Shown: piece by piece, positions 9,126 through 52,262 of the stretch
Layout of the letters: the number at the start of each line of letters is the position of its first letter
Numbering within the stretch: position 1 is the stretch's first letter
NCBI GenBank assembly: GCA_019057385.1
Contig: JAHQJS010000004.1
Location: 1,201,068 to 1,265,067, forward strand
Source of the DNA: Candidatus Borrarchaeum weybense
GTDB lineage: Archaea; Asgardarchaeota; Sifarchaeia; Borrarchaeales; Borrarchaeaceae
DNA length: 64,000 nucleotides
Direction of reading: 5' to 3'
Notes under the pieces: model-generated
What the model saw: the letters and a program-made list of their open reading frames with translations, nothing else
Told to the model about the DNA's origin: nothing
Database searches by the model: none
Translations under genes and position numbers: made by a program

Positions 9126-10343
9126 ATGAAATTCTATTTACCATTCTGGTGGCCTGATGGGATCAATACGCATTTTGACCCCTTCTTAGAAACCGTTCCG
9201 CATAAAGAAAAAGTTCGAATTTGGAATATCTATAATCCTCCACCCTTAGATGGTATCCTTGTTTCGAGAGTAAATGTAGAATCAAAACCTCCCGAAAATG
9301 ATGACATTCATACAGCTTTAGACTTCAAAGGATCCATAATGGGCGATTGTGGGGCGTTTTCCTATATCGACGAAGCAGAACCGCCCTACGATCCTATAGA
9401 CACTCTAGAATTTTATGAAAAATACGGATTTGATATTGGGGTGACCGTTGATCACCTCATTGTTCCTAAATACGATAATGAGAAAGAATATCGACAAGAA
9501 CTGACCATCAAAAACGCAAAAAAGATGTTTGATGTGTGGAAAAACAAAGAAACTAAATTAAAACTACTTGGTGTTGTCCAGGGATGGAATGCTAACTCTT
9601 ATGCAACTGCAGCTCTTGAACTCGCTGAATATGGTTTTGATTACATTGCACTAGGAGGTTTGGTACGCGAACCGACAGAAAACATAAAGAAAATCCTAGA
9701 GATGGTTCATGCCATACTTCAAACAAACTCTCAAGAAAAAGGCGTACAAACAAAAATTCATTTGTTTGGCATTGCACGAGAGTCACTTTTCGCTACGATG
9801 AAACATACAGGAATACACTCTTTCGATAGTGCAGGAAGTCTTCGAAATGCTTGGTTGAGCGCCAAAAAAAATTATTATTTGGATAATGTGCCCTATTGTG
9901 CCATTCGCATCCCCAGGCCAAAAGATCTACGAGGTAAAAAAAAGAAATTTGTAGAAGAGCACGAAATTTCGAAAGACCTTTTGGTTAAATTGGAAAAAAA
10001 AGCGTTGGCAAACATCCGAGCGTTTCAAAAGCAAGAAATTACTCTTGATGAAGTACTGACAGCATTAAAAGAATATACCTCTGTTTTCACCCCTCCTAAG
10101 CAAACAGATCAAATCATCAACGAGTATCAACGGACACTCAATGCTAGACCATGGGAGTTGTGTGACTGCTCACTTTGTAAAAAGATAGGGATTGACATAA
10201 TTTTCTTCAGAATGCACGAAAGGAATATGCGACGCGGGTTTCATAATGTCTACGACTTTTATAATCACTTCAAAAAGTGGGAACAAAACTATTTACCATC
10301 TAAGAAAAACGAAAAGGAAAACCAACAATTGAAGTTAGTTTAG
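9126..10343 (+). CDS. dpdA: DpdA-like 7-deazaguanine transglycosylase (TGT fold)
   Basis: DGILVS, GDCGAFSY, VTVDHLI, VQGW, IALGGL, HLFG, SFDS, RPWELCDCSLC...RRGFHN; the GDCGAF and RRGFHN variants resemble DpdA rather than tRNA TGT/ArcTGT. Confidence 0.78.
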   Translation: MKFYLPFWWPDGINTHFDPFLETVPHKEKVRIWNIYNPPPLDGILVSRVNVESKPPENDDIHTALDFKGSIMGDCGAFSYIDEAEPPYDPIDTLEFYEKYGFDIGVTVDHLIVPKYDNEKEYRQELTIKNAKKMFDVWKNKETKLKLLGVVQGWNANSYATAALELAEYGFDYIALGGLVREPTENIKKILEMVHAILQTNSQEKGVQTKIHLFGIARESLFATMKHTGIHSFDSAGSLRNAWLSAKKNYYLDNVPYCAIRIPRPKDLRGKKKKFVEEHEISKDLLVKLEKKALANIRAFQKQEITLDEVLTALKEYTSVFTPPKQTDQIINEYQRTLNARPWELCDCSLCKKIGIDIIFFRMHERNMRRGFHNVYDFYNHFKKWEQNYLPSKKNEKENQQLKLV

Positions 10344-10370
10344 ACTATTTGTAACAAGCACTAAATTCAA

Positions 10371-11579
10371 TCATATCGCTAAAGAGTCACTCATTAAGTG
10401 CGGAATATTCCCACAGGGACATTGTTTTGTATCCTTTAGTTCTATCCACTTCTTTGTATCACTAGCGTAACGAGGTTTTAGTTTAAAAATCAATACTAAT
10501 TCTTGCCCGGTTGATAAAAGTTGTTTTCCTTCTATCTTAACTACTACCTTGTTCTTTTTTACATCAACTGTCCATTCGAATGGCTCAGCAATCTCGCTAT
10601 ATGATTTGGTTAGATTAATCTCGCCTATTTTTCGCTTATGATCCATTAGAATTTCGCATGATACTGCGCCATTGAATTTGGAAAATTCATAACTAAGTTT
10701 AAGCGCGTCTAAACGCCTAAGTTTTAGCCAATAGTGAAAACATGCTGAAAACTTGTTTTTATTCAGTTTACAAACGTACATTCTCTTTTTATCTTGAATA
10801 TTGATCGTATATGACTCACCTAGTCGTAAGTTGTTATAGTAACTCTTAATAATTTCCGGTGAGACGGTAGCATTTGCGATCGTTAAATCCTTCAATTTAT
10901 GGGTGAAGACATTTGGCTCGTAGGGAAGAGACTCATCAAATTCATTTGTAATCTCAACTTCATAAGGGTCATTAGAAGAAAACAAAGTAACATAAGTGAT
11001 GAAAGGAGCCCTATTTGATAATTTTAAATATTTTCTTCGCTCAAAATAGTCCATTAACCCATCACGTCGAATTTTCCATGTAATATCCTTTGTAAGTAGC
11101 CAATGTATTTGCGTATGATTTGTAAAGAATTCAAAGAGGTCGGAATAACGAGATATCTCATTTTCAGATGCTACTTTACTCTGAAAATCGACAGGAATAT
11201 CCTTTGTAAAATATGAGGAGGGTAGGCTTCGTCCAAAGTACAAAATTCGTTTCTTTATCGTCCAAAAATCAGCAAGAGCCTTTTTTCTCTTCTTCTTTTC
11301 CTTATTGATAAGTTCTAATTGTTCCAGTGCATTTAATGCCCTTCTTACATTAGCTAATGGTTCTTGTAGCTGATCTGCCAAATCATGTGTAAAGAACCCT
11401 TTTTTGTTTTCGAGAAGTCGAGCATATGCTTTGAGGGCAGTATCATTTTTCCAGCCCATTACCTTTCCGAATGCTTCAATTTTATCTTTATTATTCATCA
11501 TATCCTCTGAAAGGATAAATTCGCTTGCAGTAGATTTCGATTCTGAGTTTTTGAGTTTCTTTTTAGGCAATAGACTCAC
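10371..11579 (-). CDS. Protein with N-terminal winged-HTH-like region and unknown C-terminal domain
   Basis: THDLADQLQEPLANVRRALNALEQLELI resembles a wHTH; remainder unrecognised. Confidence 0.55.
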   Translation of the reverse strand: MSLLPKKKLKNSESKSTASEFILSEDMMNNKDKIEAFGKVMGWKNDTALKAYARLLENKKGFFTHDLADQLQEPLANVRRALNALEQLELINKEKKKRKKALADFWTIKKRILYFGRSLPSSYFTKDIPVDFQSKVASENEISRYSDLFEFFTNHTQIHWLLTKDITWKIRRDGLMDYFERRKYLKLSNRAPFITYVTLFSSNDPYEVEITNEFDESLPYEPNVFTHKLKDLTIANATVSPEIIKSYYNNLRLGESYTINIQDKKRMYVCKLNKNKFSACFHYWLKLRRLDALKLSYEFSKFNGAVSCEILMDHKRKIGEINLTKSYSEIAEPFEWTVDVKKNKVVVKIEGKQLLSTGQELVLIFKLKPRYASDTKKWIELKDTKQCPCGNIPHLMSDSLAI

Positions 11580-11935
11580 AGTTCAGTTTTTTTACAATTA
11601 TCTCATTCGTCCTATAAAATTTTTTGTAACAGCTTTTTTATTTCATCAAAACTTCAAACCTTAATCAATACACACAAGAAATAAGCATCCAATATCAAAA
11701 TAAAACACTTAAACAAGTTTTATCCTGGTTATTTTTGCTCCTCAGCGGATTTTTAGTCTTTATATCGATTTAACATTCAAGTACAACTGTGAACCTGTTA
11801 CAATTTCTGTCATTGGAAATCCCTAAATTCGCTGATTGATAAAAAGAGTATAGAGCATTAAATTCCTGTTTTGAGTACATTTCCGACAAAAACTAGTATA
11901 TTTGAAAATAAGAGGCATATCTAAGGAGGAATTCC

Positions 11936-12493
11936 ATGGAAGAAATGGATGCAAAGCACATGAACGAACAAGATAGTAAGATGAAGATCTTCGCGGATAG
12001 TAAGGAAGCTGCGTTAACCGCGATAATGGCAGCGTTATATGCTGTTCTTACATGGGTTGTAGCCCCGATTGCTTATGGTCCAATACAATTTCGAGTGAGT
12101 GAAGGATTAAAGGGATCTGTAATTAAAAAGAAGGTTCTTATTATTAGCTTTATTATTGGGAATGCGTTATCCAATATATTTAGCCCCCAGGCAGGTATTT
12201 GGGAATTTCTCTGGATGCCCTTTTGGAACCTCATCGGTGGTGGATCATGTTATCTCATTGCCAATAAACTTACTTACAACTTTAATTACAAAGATGGAGA
12301 ATACAACCTATTCTATTTTGTTGGTGCTTTCGTGTATGCGTTCTGCATAGCATTCGCTGTAGCATTCATGCTCGCAATTCTCTTTGCCCTTCCCTTTTGG
12401 ATCCTACTTCCAGTACTTCTTCTACCAGAAGCCATACTGATCGTCGGTCTTACACCTGTAATGACTCGTATTATGAATGAAATAGAGTGGTAA
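11936..12493 (+). CDS. queT: QueT family queuosine-precursor transporter (ECF S component)
   Basis: AIMAALYAVLT...PIAYGPIQFRVSE signature; hydrophobic; SD AGGAGG. Confidence 0.88.
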   Translation: MEEMDAKHMNEQDSKMKIFADSKEAALTAIMAALYAVLTWVVAPIAYGPIQFRVSEGLKGSVIKKKVLIISFIIGNALSNIFSPQAGIWEFLWMPFWNLIGGGSCYLIANKLTYNFNYKDGEYNLFYFVGAFVYAFCIAFAVAFMLAILFALPFWILLPVLLLPEAILIVGLTPVMTRIMNEIEW

Positions 12494-12543: not shown

Positions 12544-12792
12544 TTACTTGAAAAGCCAATCTTCTCTTTTCTTTTTCATATGAGTCTCCAAGACAGTCTT
12601 TGTATGAATGTCTCCTACTGTTTCAAAAACCATGTGTGACTGAAGGGGTTTTTTTCTAGCTGGTTCAAATCCCTGAACTGGGCACAGTTCTATTGGTGTT
12701 TTAGCTAGAACTTTATGTTCAAAACAATCGCCTTTGACTTCATCTACTGGTTTGTAGTATTTACAATCCCTACAAATGAACTCTTCACGCAT
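12544..12792 (-). CDS. Small Cys-rich protein resembling glycyl-radical enzyme small FeS subunits (BssC/AssC/HpdC-like)
   Basis: CRDCKYYKPVDEVKGDC...CP four-Cys pattern; the original SD (GGAGAGGAAGGGAAATG) lies beyond the insertion at 13125-13142. Confidence 0.5.
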   Translation of the reverse strand: MREEFICRDCKYYKPVDEVKGDCFEHKVLAKTPIELCPVQGFEPARKKPLQSHMVFETVGDIHTKTVLETHMKKKREDWLFK

Positions 12793-13134
12793 TTCCCTTA
12801 GGGAAGCGCCTGCCCTTTAGGGTGGGGAAGAATTGAGGGTGTTTTTCACTTTTATTAGGGCCTCTCCACTTTTAAATACGTGTTCTGAGATAGAGGTACG
12901 TGGTCTAAAGGCACACCTCTCATAGAAGTGGAAATGGTTAATGACCTCAAGGATGAGGAGCAGTAAACTGGTATAGCCCGACTCTATATGAGGATTACTG
13001 GGCTGGGCTGCGGTAAACACGCCCATGTGTTAGCGTGCGATGAGGTTGAAACTCTTTTGCAAAGAAGAGGACTGAGACCAAGCACAGCTAAAAGCCTCAC
13101 TGCTTTAGCGTGAGGTAGTTTACGCATTTCCCTT
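12787..13134. repeat. 13-bp direct repeat ACGCATTTCCCTT at both junctions of the element
   Basis: Exact copies at 12787-12799 and 13122-13134. Confidence 0.95.
12789..13123 (+). mobile_element. Non-autonomous IS200/IS605-type element carrying a TnpB-type omegaRNA only
   Basis: Left hairpin CCTGCCCTTTAGGGTGGGG-AAGAATTG; right end AAGCCTCACTGCTTTAGCGTGAGGTAGTTTAC; internal GGGCTGCGGTAAACACGCCC; TATA TTTAAATA 12871-12878; no credible protein. Confidence 0.8.
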
Positions 13135-13322
13135 CCTCTCCTTTTATCAAATGAAATCGGAATCTTTCACAACGTCATTATATCGATTTATTCATGCAAG
13201 ATTAGTTGTTATTGTATCACTATAATATATTTTCATGATATAAAATATTTTGTATGAGTTTTTTGACGAAAACTATTAATCCTTAAAACAATTAAGATAA
13301 TGTTCTAAAATGGTCTTAGGAG

Positions 13323-14369
13323 GTGAATCTATTAGTAGGATCTTACAGGCTGACTAAAGCAGTAAGGGTTCATGGTTGATCCTGTAAGTTGCCCCAAGCA
13401 GACCTAGAAAAGTTACTAGAGAGCATAGAAGTCTATCTACCCGAAGGTTCAGTTAAAGAGAAAATGTTAGCAGGAGCAGGAGATGACGCCGCAGTAATAC
13501 AGATTAGAGATGATCTAGCACTTATTGAAACTGTAGATTTTTTCACACCAAATATTGACGAGCCAATGATTCAAGGAGAAATCTCTGCATGTAATACAAC
13601 TAATGACATTTATGCGATGGGCGCTGTAGACATTCTTAGTGTACTAGTTGTTATGGGTGCACCAACAAATATGCCTTTTGAAATCTCTCGAGATCTTTTA
13701 AAGGGATTTAAAAATTTCTGTGAACGTCTAGGAACACACATTGTCGGCGGACATACTATAATAAATCCATGGCCTTTCATTGGTGGTTGCGCACTAGGTT
13801 TGGCGCACCCAAATAGCGTTGTCTATAATCGCGGTGCAAAAGTTGGAGACATTCTTCTCTTAACAAAACCTTTAGGAACGCAACCTGCGATGGCAGCATA
13901 TCGTTTACTCAAAGAAGAACAACAATTAATTGATTTATCTGAATATTTACCCACTAAAGTAATTGATCGTGCAATACAAAAAGCAATTGAGATAATGACA
14001 ACAACAAACAGGCCAATAGCAAAAATTATGCAGGAAATCAAGGTTAATGCCGCAACGGATGTAACCGGCTTTGGATTGACTGGGCATGCACGTGAAGTAG
14101 CAACACAAAGCAAGGTAAATATTGTGATTGATACTATGCCGATCATAAAAGGAACTAATATCCTTTCTGATCAACTAGGCTATTCATTAATGGAGGGTAC
14201 ATCTGCAGAGACTGCTGGAGGAATGTTACTCTCGTTATCACGTGATAATGTTGATCTATTCAAAGAAAAACTAATAGAAAGAGGAATAAAATCCTTTGAA
14301 ATAGGGCATGTTAAGGAGGGCAGCGGACAGGTGAATATTGTGCCTGATATAAGAATTATTGAAGTTTAG
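13323..14369 (+). CDS. selD: Selenophosphate synthetase, selenoprotein (TGA=Sec at 13377-13379)
   Basis: In-frame extension upstream of the track ORF reads YRLTKAVRVHG-U-SCKLP, the SelD catalytic Cys/Sec loop; GDDAAV, TVDFFTP, ATDVTGFGLTGH, AETAGGML. Confidence 0.93.
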
Positions 14370-16764: not shown

Positions 16765-17095
16765 GTGAACTACCACCTAACGAGTGAGGTGGCTTCTGTC
16801 CTCCTAGACTGTTCTGCTTAGCCAACACGGTTGGACACATGCAGCCTAGTCATCGACAGTTCGGGCTGGTCAACGGCAGCCCCCGTCCCTCAAGGGACAC
16901 TTGAGGTCCGACAGTACCCTCATCGGTACTGTGTCTTGTGTACGCCCTTCACGCTAAGCCAGACACCTTGGATACCGCATATTTTTATTGTAATTAACTG
17001 CTATTTAAGTTGAAGGAGACCTGTGTGAAAGTGAAACAAGTAAAAGACGCAATTCATCCCCCCAACAAGTTAGGAGGTCTTCTTGCGGTAGATCT
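16765..17095 (-). mobile_element. Non-autonomous IS200/IS605-type element carrying a TnpB-type omegaRNA only; TAM TTTAT
   Basis: Minus strand: TTTAT|AGATCTACCGCAAGAAGACCTCCTAACTTGTTGGGGGGATGAATTG ... TTAAATA (17002-08) ... GGGCTGCCGTTGACCAGCCC ... GAAGCCACCTCACTCGTTAGGTGGTAGTTCAC; junctions supported by an intact paralogous site at 17159-17186. Confidence 0.88.
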
Positions 17096-17158
17096 ATAAA
17101 TTGTAGAAAGACCTTTCGTCAACGGTGATGCCTCCTTTTATGAAGGAAGATTTATCCA

Positions 17159-17186
17159 CAGTTAGGTATAAAATATAGAAAGACCT
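17159..17186 (+). promoter_or_regulatory. TATA-containing 28-bp unit, intact copy of the site split by the element
   Basis: CAGTTAGGTATAAAataTAGAAAGACCT versus split copy CAGTTAGGT (16756-64) + ATAAAttgTAGAAAGACCT (17096-17114); about 40 bp upstream of ATG 17209. Confidence 0.75.
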
Positions 17187-17208
17187 CACATAAGTAGTGG
17201 TGAAAAAT

Positions 17209-17844
17209 ATGCCTTTACAACCATTCACAAGGAATTTTAAAGATGAAAGTACACATACAGGATTTCAGTTTACATTTTATTGCGACAATTGTGGCGACGG
17301 CTACAAAACAAAATTCATAGAGTCAAAATCCTACAAGAAGAAAGGCCTTCTAAGAAAACTTTCAAAGGCAGTCTCAACTGCAGGCCGTTTTACTGGAACT
17401 GGGTCATTTAGTCTTGGATATGGATATGAAAGTTATCCGCCTGCATGGCATAAAGAGCACGAAAAAGCTTTTGAAAAAGGCTGGAACGAAGCCATAGAAC
17501 ATTTCCATAAATGTCCGAACTGTGGTAAACATGTCGATGACAACTGCTGGAATGGCCAGACGGATCTTTGCACAAAATGTTCCCCAAGAGAAGCAATAGA
17601 AGTAGCTGTAGCAAGATCGGATAAAATGAGGACAGATATAAGGGCAAAGGCTGCCCAGACTGAAGTATTTACTGGAGAAGTCGATAAAAGAACGACATTA
17701 TGTCCAGAGTGCGGTCAACCTGCTGGCGAAGGCAAATTCTGTAGCGAATGTGGTGCCCCTCTCGCACAAATCCAATGTCCCAATTGTGGAACACCGCTTA
17801 AACCTGGCACAAAGTTCTGCAACGAATGTGGAAAGAAACTCTGA
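17209..17844 (+). CDS. Multi zinc-ribbon (double zinc ribbon) protein
   Basis: GFQFTFYCDNCG and repeated CxxCG...KFCxECG units. Confidence 0.85.
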   Translation: MPLQPFTRNFKDESTHTGFQFTFYCDNCGDGYKTKFIESKSYKKKGLLRKLSKAVSTAGRFTGTGSFSLGYGYESYPPAWHKEHEKAFEKGWNEAIEHFHKCPNCGKHVDDNCWNGQTDLCTKCSPREAIEVAVARSDKMRTDIRAKAAQTEVFTGEVDKRTTLCPECGQPAGEGKFCSECGAPLAQIQCPNCGTPLKPGTKFCNECGKKL

Positions 17845-49875: not shown

Positions 49876-51310
49876 GTTACTACTTTCGTAGAAAAATATT
49901 AAACTTCTTCCATACTAACCACAGGAACAAGTGGAAAGTAGTTAGAGGACTGGGGACCATATACTCCCAGGGATAGCCCGCGATCTCGTATGTTGCATGC
50001 GGCGTTATAGTCGGCGTCACCCTTATAACCGCAAGCTGGACATACGAATTTTTCATCTCGACGGATACCCCTGCTTCCACACTTGTGACAGACTTGACTC
50101 GACCAGTATGGGTACACCTCTATCAGGAAAACACGGTTTTCCTCGCAGAGCAACTCCAATTTGGTACAAGCATGACGATAAGCCCAGTGTGAGAGCAGTC
50201 GGTTAGTGTAACGATTTCTTCGCTTCTTTTTATATTTTCGCGCTTTCTTACTTCGTCCTTTCTTCACATCTCGTAAGCGTTCGATCACTAGCACTCTTAT
50301 TCTCGTGAAATCTATCTTCTTCAACTCACTATTGATGTGTTCTTTAATTATTAGGTGGCTTTTTTTCCTTCTGTAAAACCGCTCTATTTCCTGTTTCAAT
50401 GTTCCTCCAACGATTTGACCATCAGATATCACTGCTAGTTTGCGAAAGCCCAGGTCCAGACCTACCATCTCTCCCAATTTTCTTATTGGGGGCAGTTGCT
50501 TCTCGAAGAAGACATCAAGGAAAAAGCCTTGTTTGGTTCTTCGTAGCCTACAGGACTTCAATAACTCCCAACCCTTATTATAAAAAGAGTTAAAGTGATG
50601 ATGTCGTTTGGTTGGCAGATAAATGGGTCTGCCACCTAAAATAGAGATTTTGATCCAGAGGTCAAAGGTGTTGTTGCCTTTTTTAATTTGCGCAAAGCGT
50701 TGGTCCAGTTCAAGTGTGGCTTTACAAATGACTGGTTTGGTTTTTTTGGTACGTTTACGCTGAGACTTGACATTCTGGAGTGCCTGTTTGGCGGCACATT
50801 GCTTGTATCGTTCTGTCAGTGATGTCCTTATGTGCAGGTAATATTTTTTAGGGACAAATGAGCCTTCGAATATATTATGATTCCAGAGGGTGTTGATGCA
50901 TTTCTGCATAAAACTGAGATATTCATCAATTAAGTTATTCAGTATACTTTGTTTAAGTTTAGTCACATAGTTTAAGCTAAGGGTGGCCCGCCTAATCACG
51001 ATATTCTCAAATCCTTTCGTATCTCGATATTAAACTATTAGTTACTAAGACACGTACTTAAGAAGAGTATTAGTCTTTATGATGCGGCTTTACAGAGTTA
51101 GTATATACAATCACCTTTTTTTAAGAACAGACTCCCCTTTGTATAAGTAAAATATCAAAAAAGAAAACCGCTTTCAGCGTTATGAAGTTAGGCAAATTGA
51201 GAGGAAACCTGATTGTATGATTACTTCTGATATAACCTCATTAAAACAAATTATGGCGATGTGTTTACGCGTTTTCTATGATTTCTATATTTTTACCTAA
51301 ATCTCTTTCA
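49871..51310 (-). mobile_element. IS607-like tnpB element lacking tnpA (1440 bp; junction ambiguous within an 8-bp repeat)
   Basis: TATAGTGA at both junctions (49868-75, 51308-15); removal restores a 166-aa ORF; TAGAAA-type subterminal repeats at both ends. Confidence 0.8.
49899..50999 (-). CDS. tnpB: RNA-guided endonuclease TnpB
   Basis: RuvC-I GLDLG, RuvC-II VIERL, Zn finger CHKC/CPAC, RuvC-III DADYNAACNI; catalytic D-E-D present. Confidence 0.93.
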   Translation of the reverse strand: MIRRATLSLNYVTKLKQSILNNLIDEYLSFMQKCINTLWNHNIFEGSFVPKKYYLHIRTSLTERYKQCAAKQALQNVKSQRKRTKKTKPVICKATLELDQRFAQIKKGNNTFDLWIKISILGGRPIYLPTKRHHHFNSFYNKGWELLKSCRLRRTKQGFFLDVFFEKQLPPIRKLGEMVGLDLGFRKLAVISDGQIVGGTLKQEIERFYRRKKSHLIIKEHINSELKKIDFTRIRVLVIERLRDVKKGRSKKARKYKKKRRNRYTNRLLSHWAYRHACTKLELLCEENRVFLIEVYPYWSSQVCHKCGSRGIRRDEKFVCPACGYKGDADYNAACNIRDRGLSLGVYGPQSSNYFPLVPVVSMEEV

Positions 51311-52009: not shown

Positions 52010-52262
52010 CCCCACACCAAGGGAGTAGGTTCTCTTCGCCAAAGTTATCAGTCAGTACTATACGATGATCACTGAGAGTTTCCTCTCTGTTTAAACCACC
52101 GTTTACAGAGCAAAGGACTAGAGAAGCATCCTTTGGTGTGTTCTTGAACTCTCCTGATAACGTAGATACCGCCATAGACTATATGACCTCTCTTAGGCTA
52201 ATCAACCAATTACTCTTGCTCCTCACGGAACAAGCCCTCTATTTTTTTGGAGGGTGATTGAC
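52010..52262 (-). ncRNA. HEARO/IscB omegaRNA scaffold
   Basis: GTCAATCACCC..GGGCTTG, GTTGATTAGCCTAAG, CTACGTT, GGATGCTTCTCTAGTCC, TTTAAACAG, TTGGCGAAG in HEARO order; 3' boundary approximate. Confidence 0.82.

Follow-up and report, generated by a model that had tools for sequence, protein, structure and literature searches.

IS200/IS605 elements and PATEs are described as making no target duplication (PMC3119063; 10.1101/2023.03.14.532601). The question raised by this locus is why a cassette of that kind has the same short sequence at both of its junctions, and how one of the two copies comes to supply the start codon of the gene into which the cassette is inserted. The window, that is the whole stretch of 64,000 nucleotides that was analysed, corresponds to C4:1201068-1265067 of G000, the genome under study. 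As the preliminary description reported, the repeat ACGCATTTCCCTT is found at both junctions (12787-12799 and 13122-13134, +) and has no further exact match in the window; with up to one mismatch there are three matches, where shuffles predict 0.14. The informative part of the repeat is 11 nt and not 13 nt, because AC is common to the ends of the TAM (TTCAC) and of the RE terminus (TTTAC). The repeat copies overlap the ends of a protein-less cassette of 335 bp (12789-13123) which carries a gene for a TnpB guide RNA (omegaRNA) and is inserted at codon 2, or codons 2-3, of a small Cys-rich archaeal gene.

The region 12784-13143 is arranged on the + strand as TTCAC, GCATTTCCCTT, about 324 nt up to GGTAGTTTAC, a second GCATTTCCCTT and CCTCTCC. 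The TAM or TnpA target motif TTCAC (12784..12788; family consensus NTCAC) abuts the left side of the element. It is followed by the left copy of the host target (12789..12799), which stands in place of LE nucleotides 1-11, for which the consensus is TGATCCCCCTC. The remaining LE (12800..12845) is conserved across the cassettes and contains a subterminal hairpin, CCTGCCC-TTTA-GGGTGGG (12809-12826, ssDNA fold), and the outer-stem partner TTGAGGG (12833-12839). There is a TATA-like box, TTTTAAATA, at 12870..12878, and the predicted omegaRNA scaffold runs from 12900 to 13123, its 5' limit being approximate. Within the scaffold are a remnant of the 3' coding end of tnpB (12970-13107; 89% protein identity to TnpB residues 337-382 of C7:821418-822566), the RE hairpin with its stem CCTCAC/GTGAGG (13094..13116; ssDNA fold, z = -2.7) and the RE terminus TTTAC (13119..13123), which forms the final bases of the element and is where the homology between copies stops. 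The native host flank GCATTTCCCTTCCTCTCC (13124..13141) is the predicted guide, positioned according to established TnpB biology (10.1101/2023.03.14.532601). The right repeat copy (13124-13134) forms nucleotides 1-11 of the predicted guide, as had been claimed, and lies directly after the RE terminus, and 13135-13141 is the antisense of the native Shine-Dalgarno sequence (SD), GGAGAGG. Both cassette ends have subterminal imperfect hairpins without terminal inverted repeats, and these are conserved in 24 copies.

There is a 1.28-kb full-length relative of the cassette at C7:821405-822690. It has the same LE and TATA box as the cassette (the TTTAAATA box, which in full-length elements is upstream of tnpB), its RE is 92% identical over the last 152 nt, and its ORF matches PF07282 and PF01385 (TnpB). 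Over its last 150 nt the window cassette shows homology to the 3' end of this tnpB, and patches of the interior are also kept. On sequence grounds the cassette is an internally deleted tnpB element, a PATE-type non-autonomous IS200/IS605 member that keeps the LE, putative promoter, predicted omegaRNA scaffold and RE. Its earlier description as an IS200/IS605 omegaRNA cassette is supported, and it is tnpB-less.

The omegaRNA is assigned by position to the tnpB 3' end plus RE, and its guide would begin immediately outside RE. RNAalifold analysis of the 24 copies gave double compensatory changes in 13 of 57 predicted pairs, located in the 3' two thirds (for example GGGC/GCCC to GGGG/CCCC, and CTCTT/AAGAG to CTCTA/TAGAG). 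The TATA-like box, a presumed promoter, is nearly invariant in the family (alignment columns 88-97). This box and the covariation fit an omegaRNA gene with its own promoter. At the cassette locus no Rfam family reached its gathering score. The sole match in the window is a HEARO RNA (IscB-type omegaRNA) at 52025-52262 (-), which scored 132 bits as a full-length match to RF02033.

Only one cognate (family C) tnpB is present in G000, at C7:821418-822566 (-) (L004/L075), and it has an in-frame TAA (...QPRC*YEVK...); the next-best TnpB in this genome is no more than 27% identical. Intact cognate genes of 386-393 aa are present elsewhere in the genus, four in G004 and one in G001. G000 has a single gene for a Y1 (HUH) TnpA (PF01797, C7:194221-194586), which is a candidate source of transposase in trans, and 41 matches to the TNB domain (PF07282). 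By eye, the G+C content of C7:821418-822566 looks clearly above the 37% of the genome. Two further TnpB-type genes lie at approximately 49956-50945 (-) of the window and just past its end at C4:1265246-1265464; the first of these (C4:1251023-1252012) shares 25% identity with the family-C TnpB.

PATEs are non-autonomous, protein-less IS200/IS605 members encoding omegaRNA and are known from Haloquadratum (PMC3119063) and Geobacillus (10.1101/2023.03.14.532601). Like the cassette, they are internal deletions of tnpB elements in which the tnpB 3' end and RE (the omegaRNA site) are kept, they have subterminal hairpins without inverted terminal repeats, they are inserted 3' of a short motif, and they occur in many copies with a single TnpA per genome. 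The cassette itself is an ordinary PATE, or stand-alone omegaRNA cassette, of a known kind (PMC3119063; 10.1101/2023.03.14.532601). Unlike PATEs, however, the window copy and three of its 23 relatives bear a TAM-anchored copy of the target over the start of LE.

The host gene (12544..12792, -, from the ORF list) encodes a Cys-rich protein of 82 aa without a Pfam family. Its orthologues are 87% (G004) and 77% (G003) identical at the amino acid level, with uninterrupted 5' regions, and dN/dS against the G004 orthologue is 0.15. The start codon (CAT at 12790-12792) lies inside the left repeat copy, confirming that this copy rebuilds the host ATG. The right copy, which in gene orientation is preceded by GGAGAGG, opens a read-in ORF of 47 aa (12984..13127, -) that begins at the native ATG and SD and enters the cassette as a by-product of the insertion. 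Beside the Cys-rich gene, at 9126-12493, are genes for a TGT-like transglycosylase (PF01702), a QueT transporter (PF06177) and a 402-aa protein that is weakly winged-helix-like; past the cassette is an AIR-synthase/SelD-like gene (13389-14369).

A search for an empty allele had been proposed as a check, and the orthologous site is indeed empty in two sister species. In both G004 and G003 there is a single uninterrupted GGAGAGGA.GGGA.ATG upstream of the gene (GGAGAGGACGGGAAATG in G004, GGAGAGGACGGGACATG in G003), and in G004 the selD-like neighbour is upstream. Since these sites are empty and their sequence is contiguous, the right copy, to which they are orthologous, is the native 5'UTR and ATG.

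The left copy was compared with the family. The LE consensus of the 24 cassettes is TCAC|TGATCCCCCTCAAGG (in a longer form TCAC|TGATCCCCCTCAAGGAAGC). The alignment of other copies, also proposed earlier, shows that they start with TGATCCCCCTCAAGG and not with GCATTTCCCTTAGGG, so the repeat is target-specific and is not encoded by the element. The window LE has no indel relative to the consensus, but five of its first 11 bases are changed (positions 1, 2, 5, 6 and 11) and all five are the base of its own right flank. Beyond this stretch the element and its relatives share 85-91% identity, and the closest of these (in G001, 90-91% identical) have the consensus LE start. By these alignments the locus contains two copies of 11 nt of host target, of which the left one has taken the place of the LE start and so restored the host start codon. 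The replaced bases also affect the proposed outer end stem, which in the family consensus is a perfect CCCTCAA/TTGAGGG. The pairing of CCCTTAG with TTGAGGG noted previously for the window copy does form on paper (five Watson-Crick and two G.T pairs), but the minimum-energy DNA fold prefers another local hairpin.

The alignment of 24 cassettes, which is about the number of such cassettes in the genus, was drawn from five genomes. The RE hairpin and terminus are present in approximately 30 copies in G000, in three subfamilies; the window cassette belongs to subfamily C, with TCAC at the left and GGTAGTTTAC at the end. The motif to the left of LE is TCAC in 22 of the 24 cassettes and TCAT in the other two. 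In 20 of the 24 there is no repeat and the LE start is unrelated to the right flank, and for one cassette of G004 (L037) there is a precise empty site in G000. In the remaining four, the LE start matches its own right flank at 10/10 (window), 9/10 (L058), 9/10 (L047) and 7/10 (L064) positions. As a control, the 552 mismatched pairs of LE and flank were compared, and the best reached 7/10, once. Shuffles and permutation together rule out a chance repeat.

L058 (G004:C113) carries 9 nt of target after TCAC, lacks 11 nt of LE and has an AGAGGAT-GTG start region rebuilt. L064 (G004:C37) has 8 nt of target (7/8 identical) after TCAC and has lost about 26 nt of LE including half of the hairpin, and a Shine-Dalgarno sequence, GAGGTGA, is rebuilt. 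The empty alleles of both are present in G000 and have the target in single copy. In L047 (G000 C7:356147), about 34 nt of target (25/34 identical) stand in place of the first ~59 nt of the element and rebuild the N-terminal MNLIDTHIHVDGMS of a TatD-like hydrolase, the differences from the displaced native copy being mostly synonymous; this site is empty in G003. In all four family-C cases the rebuilt start signals belong to the gene reading away from LE. The loss of LE is 11, 11, about 26 and about 59 nt, the left join always runs from the TAM, and the junction between RE and flank is exact in every case. Microhomology at the joins is short, being 4-5 nt in the window (CCCT(T)) and about 2 nt in L058. 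What sets this locus apart is a target copy, anchored at the TAM, which has overwritten LE and re-created host start signals, and the empty sites verify four independent events. The suggestion that selection had preserved the gene gains further support from the other three cassettes.

There is an additional case in another family at C4:488985-489123. Here TTTAT and 7 nt of target are followed by the last ~140 nt of an element, RE and the same 7 nt. The insert has no LE, no gene is rescued and an in-frame TAG remains, which suggests that the scar is mechanistic and not purely selected. For this short insert an RNA-templated or reverse-transcribed origin is possible; for the window copy such an origin is ruled out because LE is present from position 12 together with the promoter. 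When the 277 GTAGTTYAY termini of G000 were screened for a TAM followed by a copy of the flank, the only matches were the window cassette, L047, the case with 7 bp, three arrays of tandem cassettes and one 9-mer. The 9-mer is part of a tandem duplication of ~90 nt at a family-D cassette and is not a replacement of the LE start. No LE-start replacement was found among about eight complete copies of family D, and no such pattern among the RE-only fragments in G000. The events amount to only 4-6 in total and come from five related genomes.

From these observations we infer that the left junction arose when an empty copy of the site was joined illegitimately to a filled one, most simply through a failed repair after a TnpB cut, and we put the chances of this at about even. 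The cassette would originally have been inserted normally, 3' of TCAC in codons 2-3 of the Cys-rich gene and without duplication. The present left junction would be a secondary product and not one made by TnpA, which works on one strand and is unable to duplicate target bases. Host sequence reaching 11 nt beyond the TAM would have come from an empty copy, and the element from LE position 12 onwards from a filled one. The join would be sited at the microhomology CCCT(T) and the right side would be homologous and exact. Homology-directed integration, as proposed in the preliminary description, suits the right junction, which looks either homology-made or canonical, but the left is an illegitimate join of microhomology type.

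The TnpB homing pathway is established and consists of excision, a cut of the resealed site and repair from a filled copy (10.1101/2023.03.14.532601). TnpB needs a TAM-proximal heteroduplex of about 12 bp and cuts 15-21 nt from the TAM (PMC10097598). If homing were the trigger, the emptied and resealed site would be cut at that distance, and the right broken end would invade the filled sister or genome copy and copy the element from RE to LE. The copied strand would then be closed onto the left end, which would still bear TAM-proximal target bases that mismatch LE. Such a product would keep the cassette and restore the host ATG, and would match the guide over only 11 nt, fewer than the ~12 bp that TnpB needs, so that it would be spared further cutting. 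The model assumes that empty and filled copies coexisted, through sister chromatids, polyploidy or DNA transfer. All the cases fit one general form, in which host sequence of the empty site, to N bases past the TAM, would be joined to the filled site from a point P. Here N is 7, 8, 9, 11, about 22 or 34, and P lies within the element, except in the family-D case, where it falls in the left flank.

Several features are consistent with this proposal. The polarity of the scars, with an exact RE and a variable loss of LE from the TAM, is as expected for copying from RE to LE. The parts of TnpB/IscB homing are arranged so that the RE side should be exact and the duplication should start at the TAM. 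The target kept is 11, 9 and 8 nt in family C and 7 nt in the other family, all below ~12 bp and within the 15-21 nt cut distance; these four short cases would escape re-cutting because about 12 bp of TAM-proximal pairing is needed. Rare products of this kind would be seen at gene starts because the host gene is selected for. There are intact cognate TnpB genes in the genus and a Y1 TnpA in G000. Against TnpB as the trigger, the sole cognate tnpB in G000 is broken, so that TnpB activity must be past or ancestral, and L047 keeps ~34 nt, beyond what a cut at 15-21 nt leaves. The latter case and the ~90-nt tandem duplication of family D mean that a TnpB cut cannot account for every case. The narrower claim, that these junctions are natural footprints of failed TnpB homing in which the cassette is kept, the host gene is restored and a guide match of less than ~12 nt escapes cutting, is put forward tentatively and may well prove wrong.

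The main competing explanation, which we consider rather unlikely, is that repair took place within one molecule after the fixation of a canonical insertion, by short-patch conversion or a double template switch, with no empty copy taking part. The first 11 nt of the right flank would have been copied over the LE start 335 bp away, and selection would have kept the restored ATG; the shared ..AC, A-T and CCCT bases would have helped, and TnpA may have held the ends together. This would suit the base-for-base replacement without a change in length, the 6/11 bases (and AC) that LE start and flank already had in common, and the rebuilding of a translation start signal or N-terminus in 4/4 family-C cases. 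It requires neither an active TnpB nor an empty allele and so accommodates the pseudogenised tnpB of G000. It needs two switches at very short homologies, however, as against one illegitimate join between empty and filled copies. Additionally, its natural products do not include the LE deletions of L058, L064 and L047, or the 140-nt insert without LE at C4:488985-489123, where no gene is rescued, and the kept lengths of 7-11 nt are left without a reason. The match between guide and left junction could alternatively be functional, with the omegaRNA, with or without TnpB, binding the left junction or the AAGGGAAAUGC initiation region of the neighbour mRNA and so regulating the element or host gene. 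The 11-nt match behind TTCAC, to which the preliminary description drew attention, is real: the 11 nt after TTCAC (12784-12788) agree in full with the predicted guide. A read-through transcript past RE would be antisense to both copies of the initiation region, and binding without cleavage may be possible at partial matches, as inferred from PMC10097598. The match is nevertheless the automatic result of a duplication that also restores the ATG, it is absent from the twenty canonical cassettes, the other three cases duplicate differing lengths and features, and the cognate tnpB is broken in G000. A regulatory function is for these reasons improbable; the antisense position relative to the initiation region of the neighbour follows from the geometry alone. 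Under the preferred reading, that of a join between empty and filled copies, the 11-nt match would be a by-product lying just below the TnpB threshold.

Two further readings have very little probability. The direct repeat at both junctions is what a duplication-generating transposase of another IS class would leave, and the preliminary description had named target-specific duplications in all copies as the sign of such a class. The repeat is present in only 4/24 cassettes, however, with 20 lacking it and L037 having a precise empty site. Its length ranges from 8 to about 34 nt, and its left copy stands in place of LE bases instead of flanking a complete end. The end hairpins and the TAM, like the TnpB parent and the Y1 TnpA, are those expected of IS200/IS605. 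The family census rules the other class out. An equally remote reading is that an element-encoded LE resembles an SD/ATG-rich flank by chance, or that the right flank is what remains of an older LE after a tandem insertion. The LE start is indeed rich in C and T, as an antisense SD region is, and one cassette (L041) and its orthologue (L050) do have a degenerate LE as right flank. The consensus LE start nevertheless differs at 5/11 bases, no mismatched LE/flank pair exceeds 7/10, and the host sequence orthologous to the right copy is present in two species. Encoding by the element is ruled out by the LE consensus of 24 copies, and an older LE by the empty sites for the window, L058 and L064; it holds for L041/L050. 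A single Campbell-type crossover between an excised circle and the target was rejected on paper, since it would leave circle and not host sequence in one copy. Template switching at a fork after lagging-strand excision by TnpA has the right polarity, but it needs an RE that has already been copied and is thus double-stranded, and it was set aside.

The proposed events have relatives among known systems. TnpB/IscB homing (10.1101/2023.03.14.532601) has the same left TAM, right-flank guide and filled and empty site copies. It restores the element perfectly, whereas the left junction here is imperfect, restores a gene and is presumably resistant to cutting. Internally deleted P and Ac/Ds elements arise through abortive gap repair (interrupted SDSA), in which one-way copying from a sister template, an early stop and closure at microhomology give truncated element copies as in our proposal. 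The break in that case is made by transposase excision in a eukaryote, whereas in this archaeon an RNA-guided nuclease would make it at a resealed site, and the product here, unlike those of interrupted SDSA, duplicates target bases. Engineered CRISPR gene drives give rise to function-preserving resistance alleles, in which the homing site is altered by imperfect repair and the host gene still works. If the homing interpretation is true, these junctions would be a natural counterpart of such alleles in an archaeon. Unlike them, the 'resistant' allele here still has the drive cassette, and only the 11-nt match suggests that it is resistant.

Literature searches on TAM-anchored, LE-overwriting footprints found no description of them. 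For PATEs, an unexplained heterogeneity of the termini beyond the palindrome has been noted (PMC3119063), which may be the same phenomenon. IS200/IS605 transposition is the textbook case of transposition without target duplication. TnpB homing has been shown in laboratory bacteria, so far without a recognised genomic trace. The signature, consisting of a TAM-anchored target copy, an overwritten LE and rebuilt start signals, can be searched for in any genome and could reveal where and how often empty and filled site copies recombined, and how hosts and guide-RNA transposons settle conflict at essential genes. For annotation, the terminal heterogeneity of mini-elements can be host sequence, and element ends, and hence TAM and guide calls, are best set from a family consensus together with empty sites.

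There is a second protein-less IS200/IS605 cassette in the window at 16765-17095 (-), which belongs to family D and has TTTAT as its TAM and GGTAGTTCAC as its RE end. It lies in the upstream copy of a diverged tandem duplication of ~90 nt that spans the TATA box, SD and ATG of a gene for a 215-aa zinc-ribbon protein. The intact downstream duplicate (~17159-17215, in the region 17096-17215) begins with TTTAT and 9 nt matching the guide of this cassette. Head-to-tail IS200/IS605 arrays are present in G000 at C4:~776585-776936, at C7:~525660-527285 and on C3 near 139813 (minus-strand count). At the array junctions the RE terminus GTAGTTCAT directly abuts the next LE, as expected if a new copy targets the TAM-like terminus of a resident one.

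Finally, some shortened or degenerate ends were seen in the family. The right flank of L041 (G000 C8:29170-29513) and of its orthologue L050 (G004:C19) is the degenerate LE ACTATCACCTCAAGGATGCTCCCC..., which suggests that another element was inserted at the TAM of an earlier copy that has since decayed. The first 9 nt of LE are missing (TCAC|CTCAAGG...) from the full-length L078 (G004:C60) and from the cassette L052 (G003:C263). The right flank of L078 also starts with CTCAAG, so that this end may be a scar closed at a microhomology of 6 nt. The flank of L052 is unrelated, and such shortened ends may still transpose.
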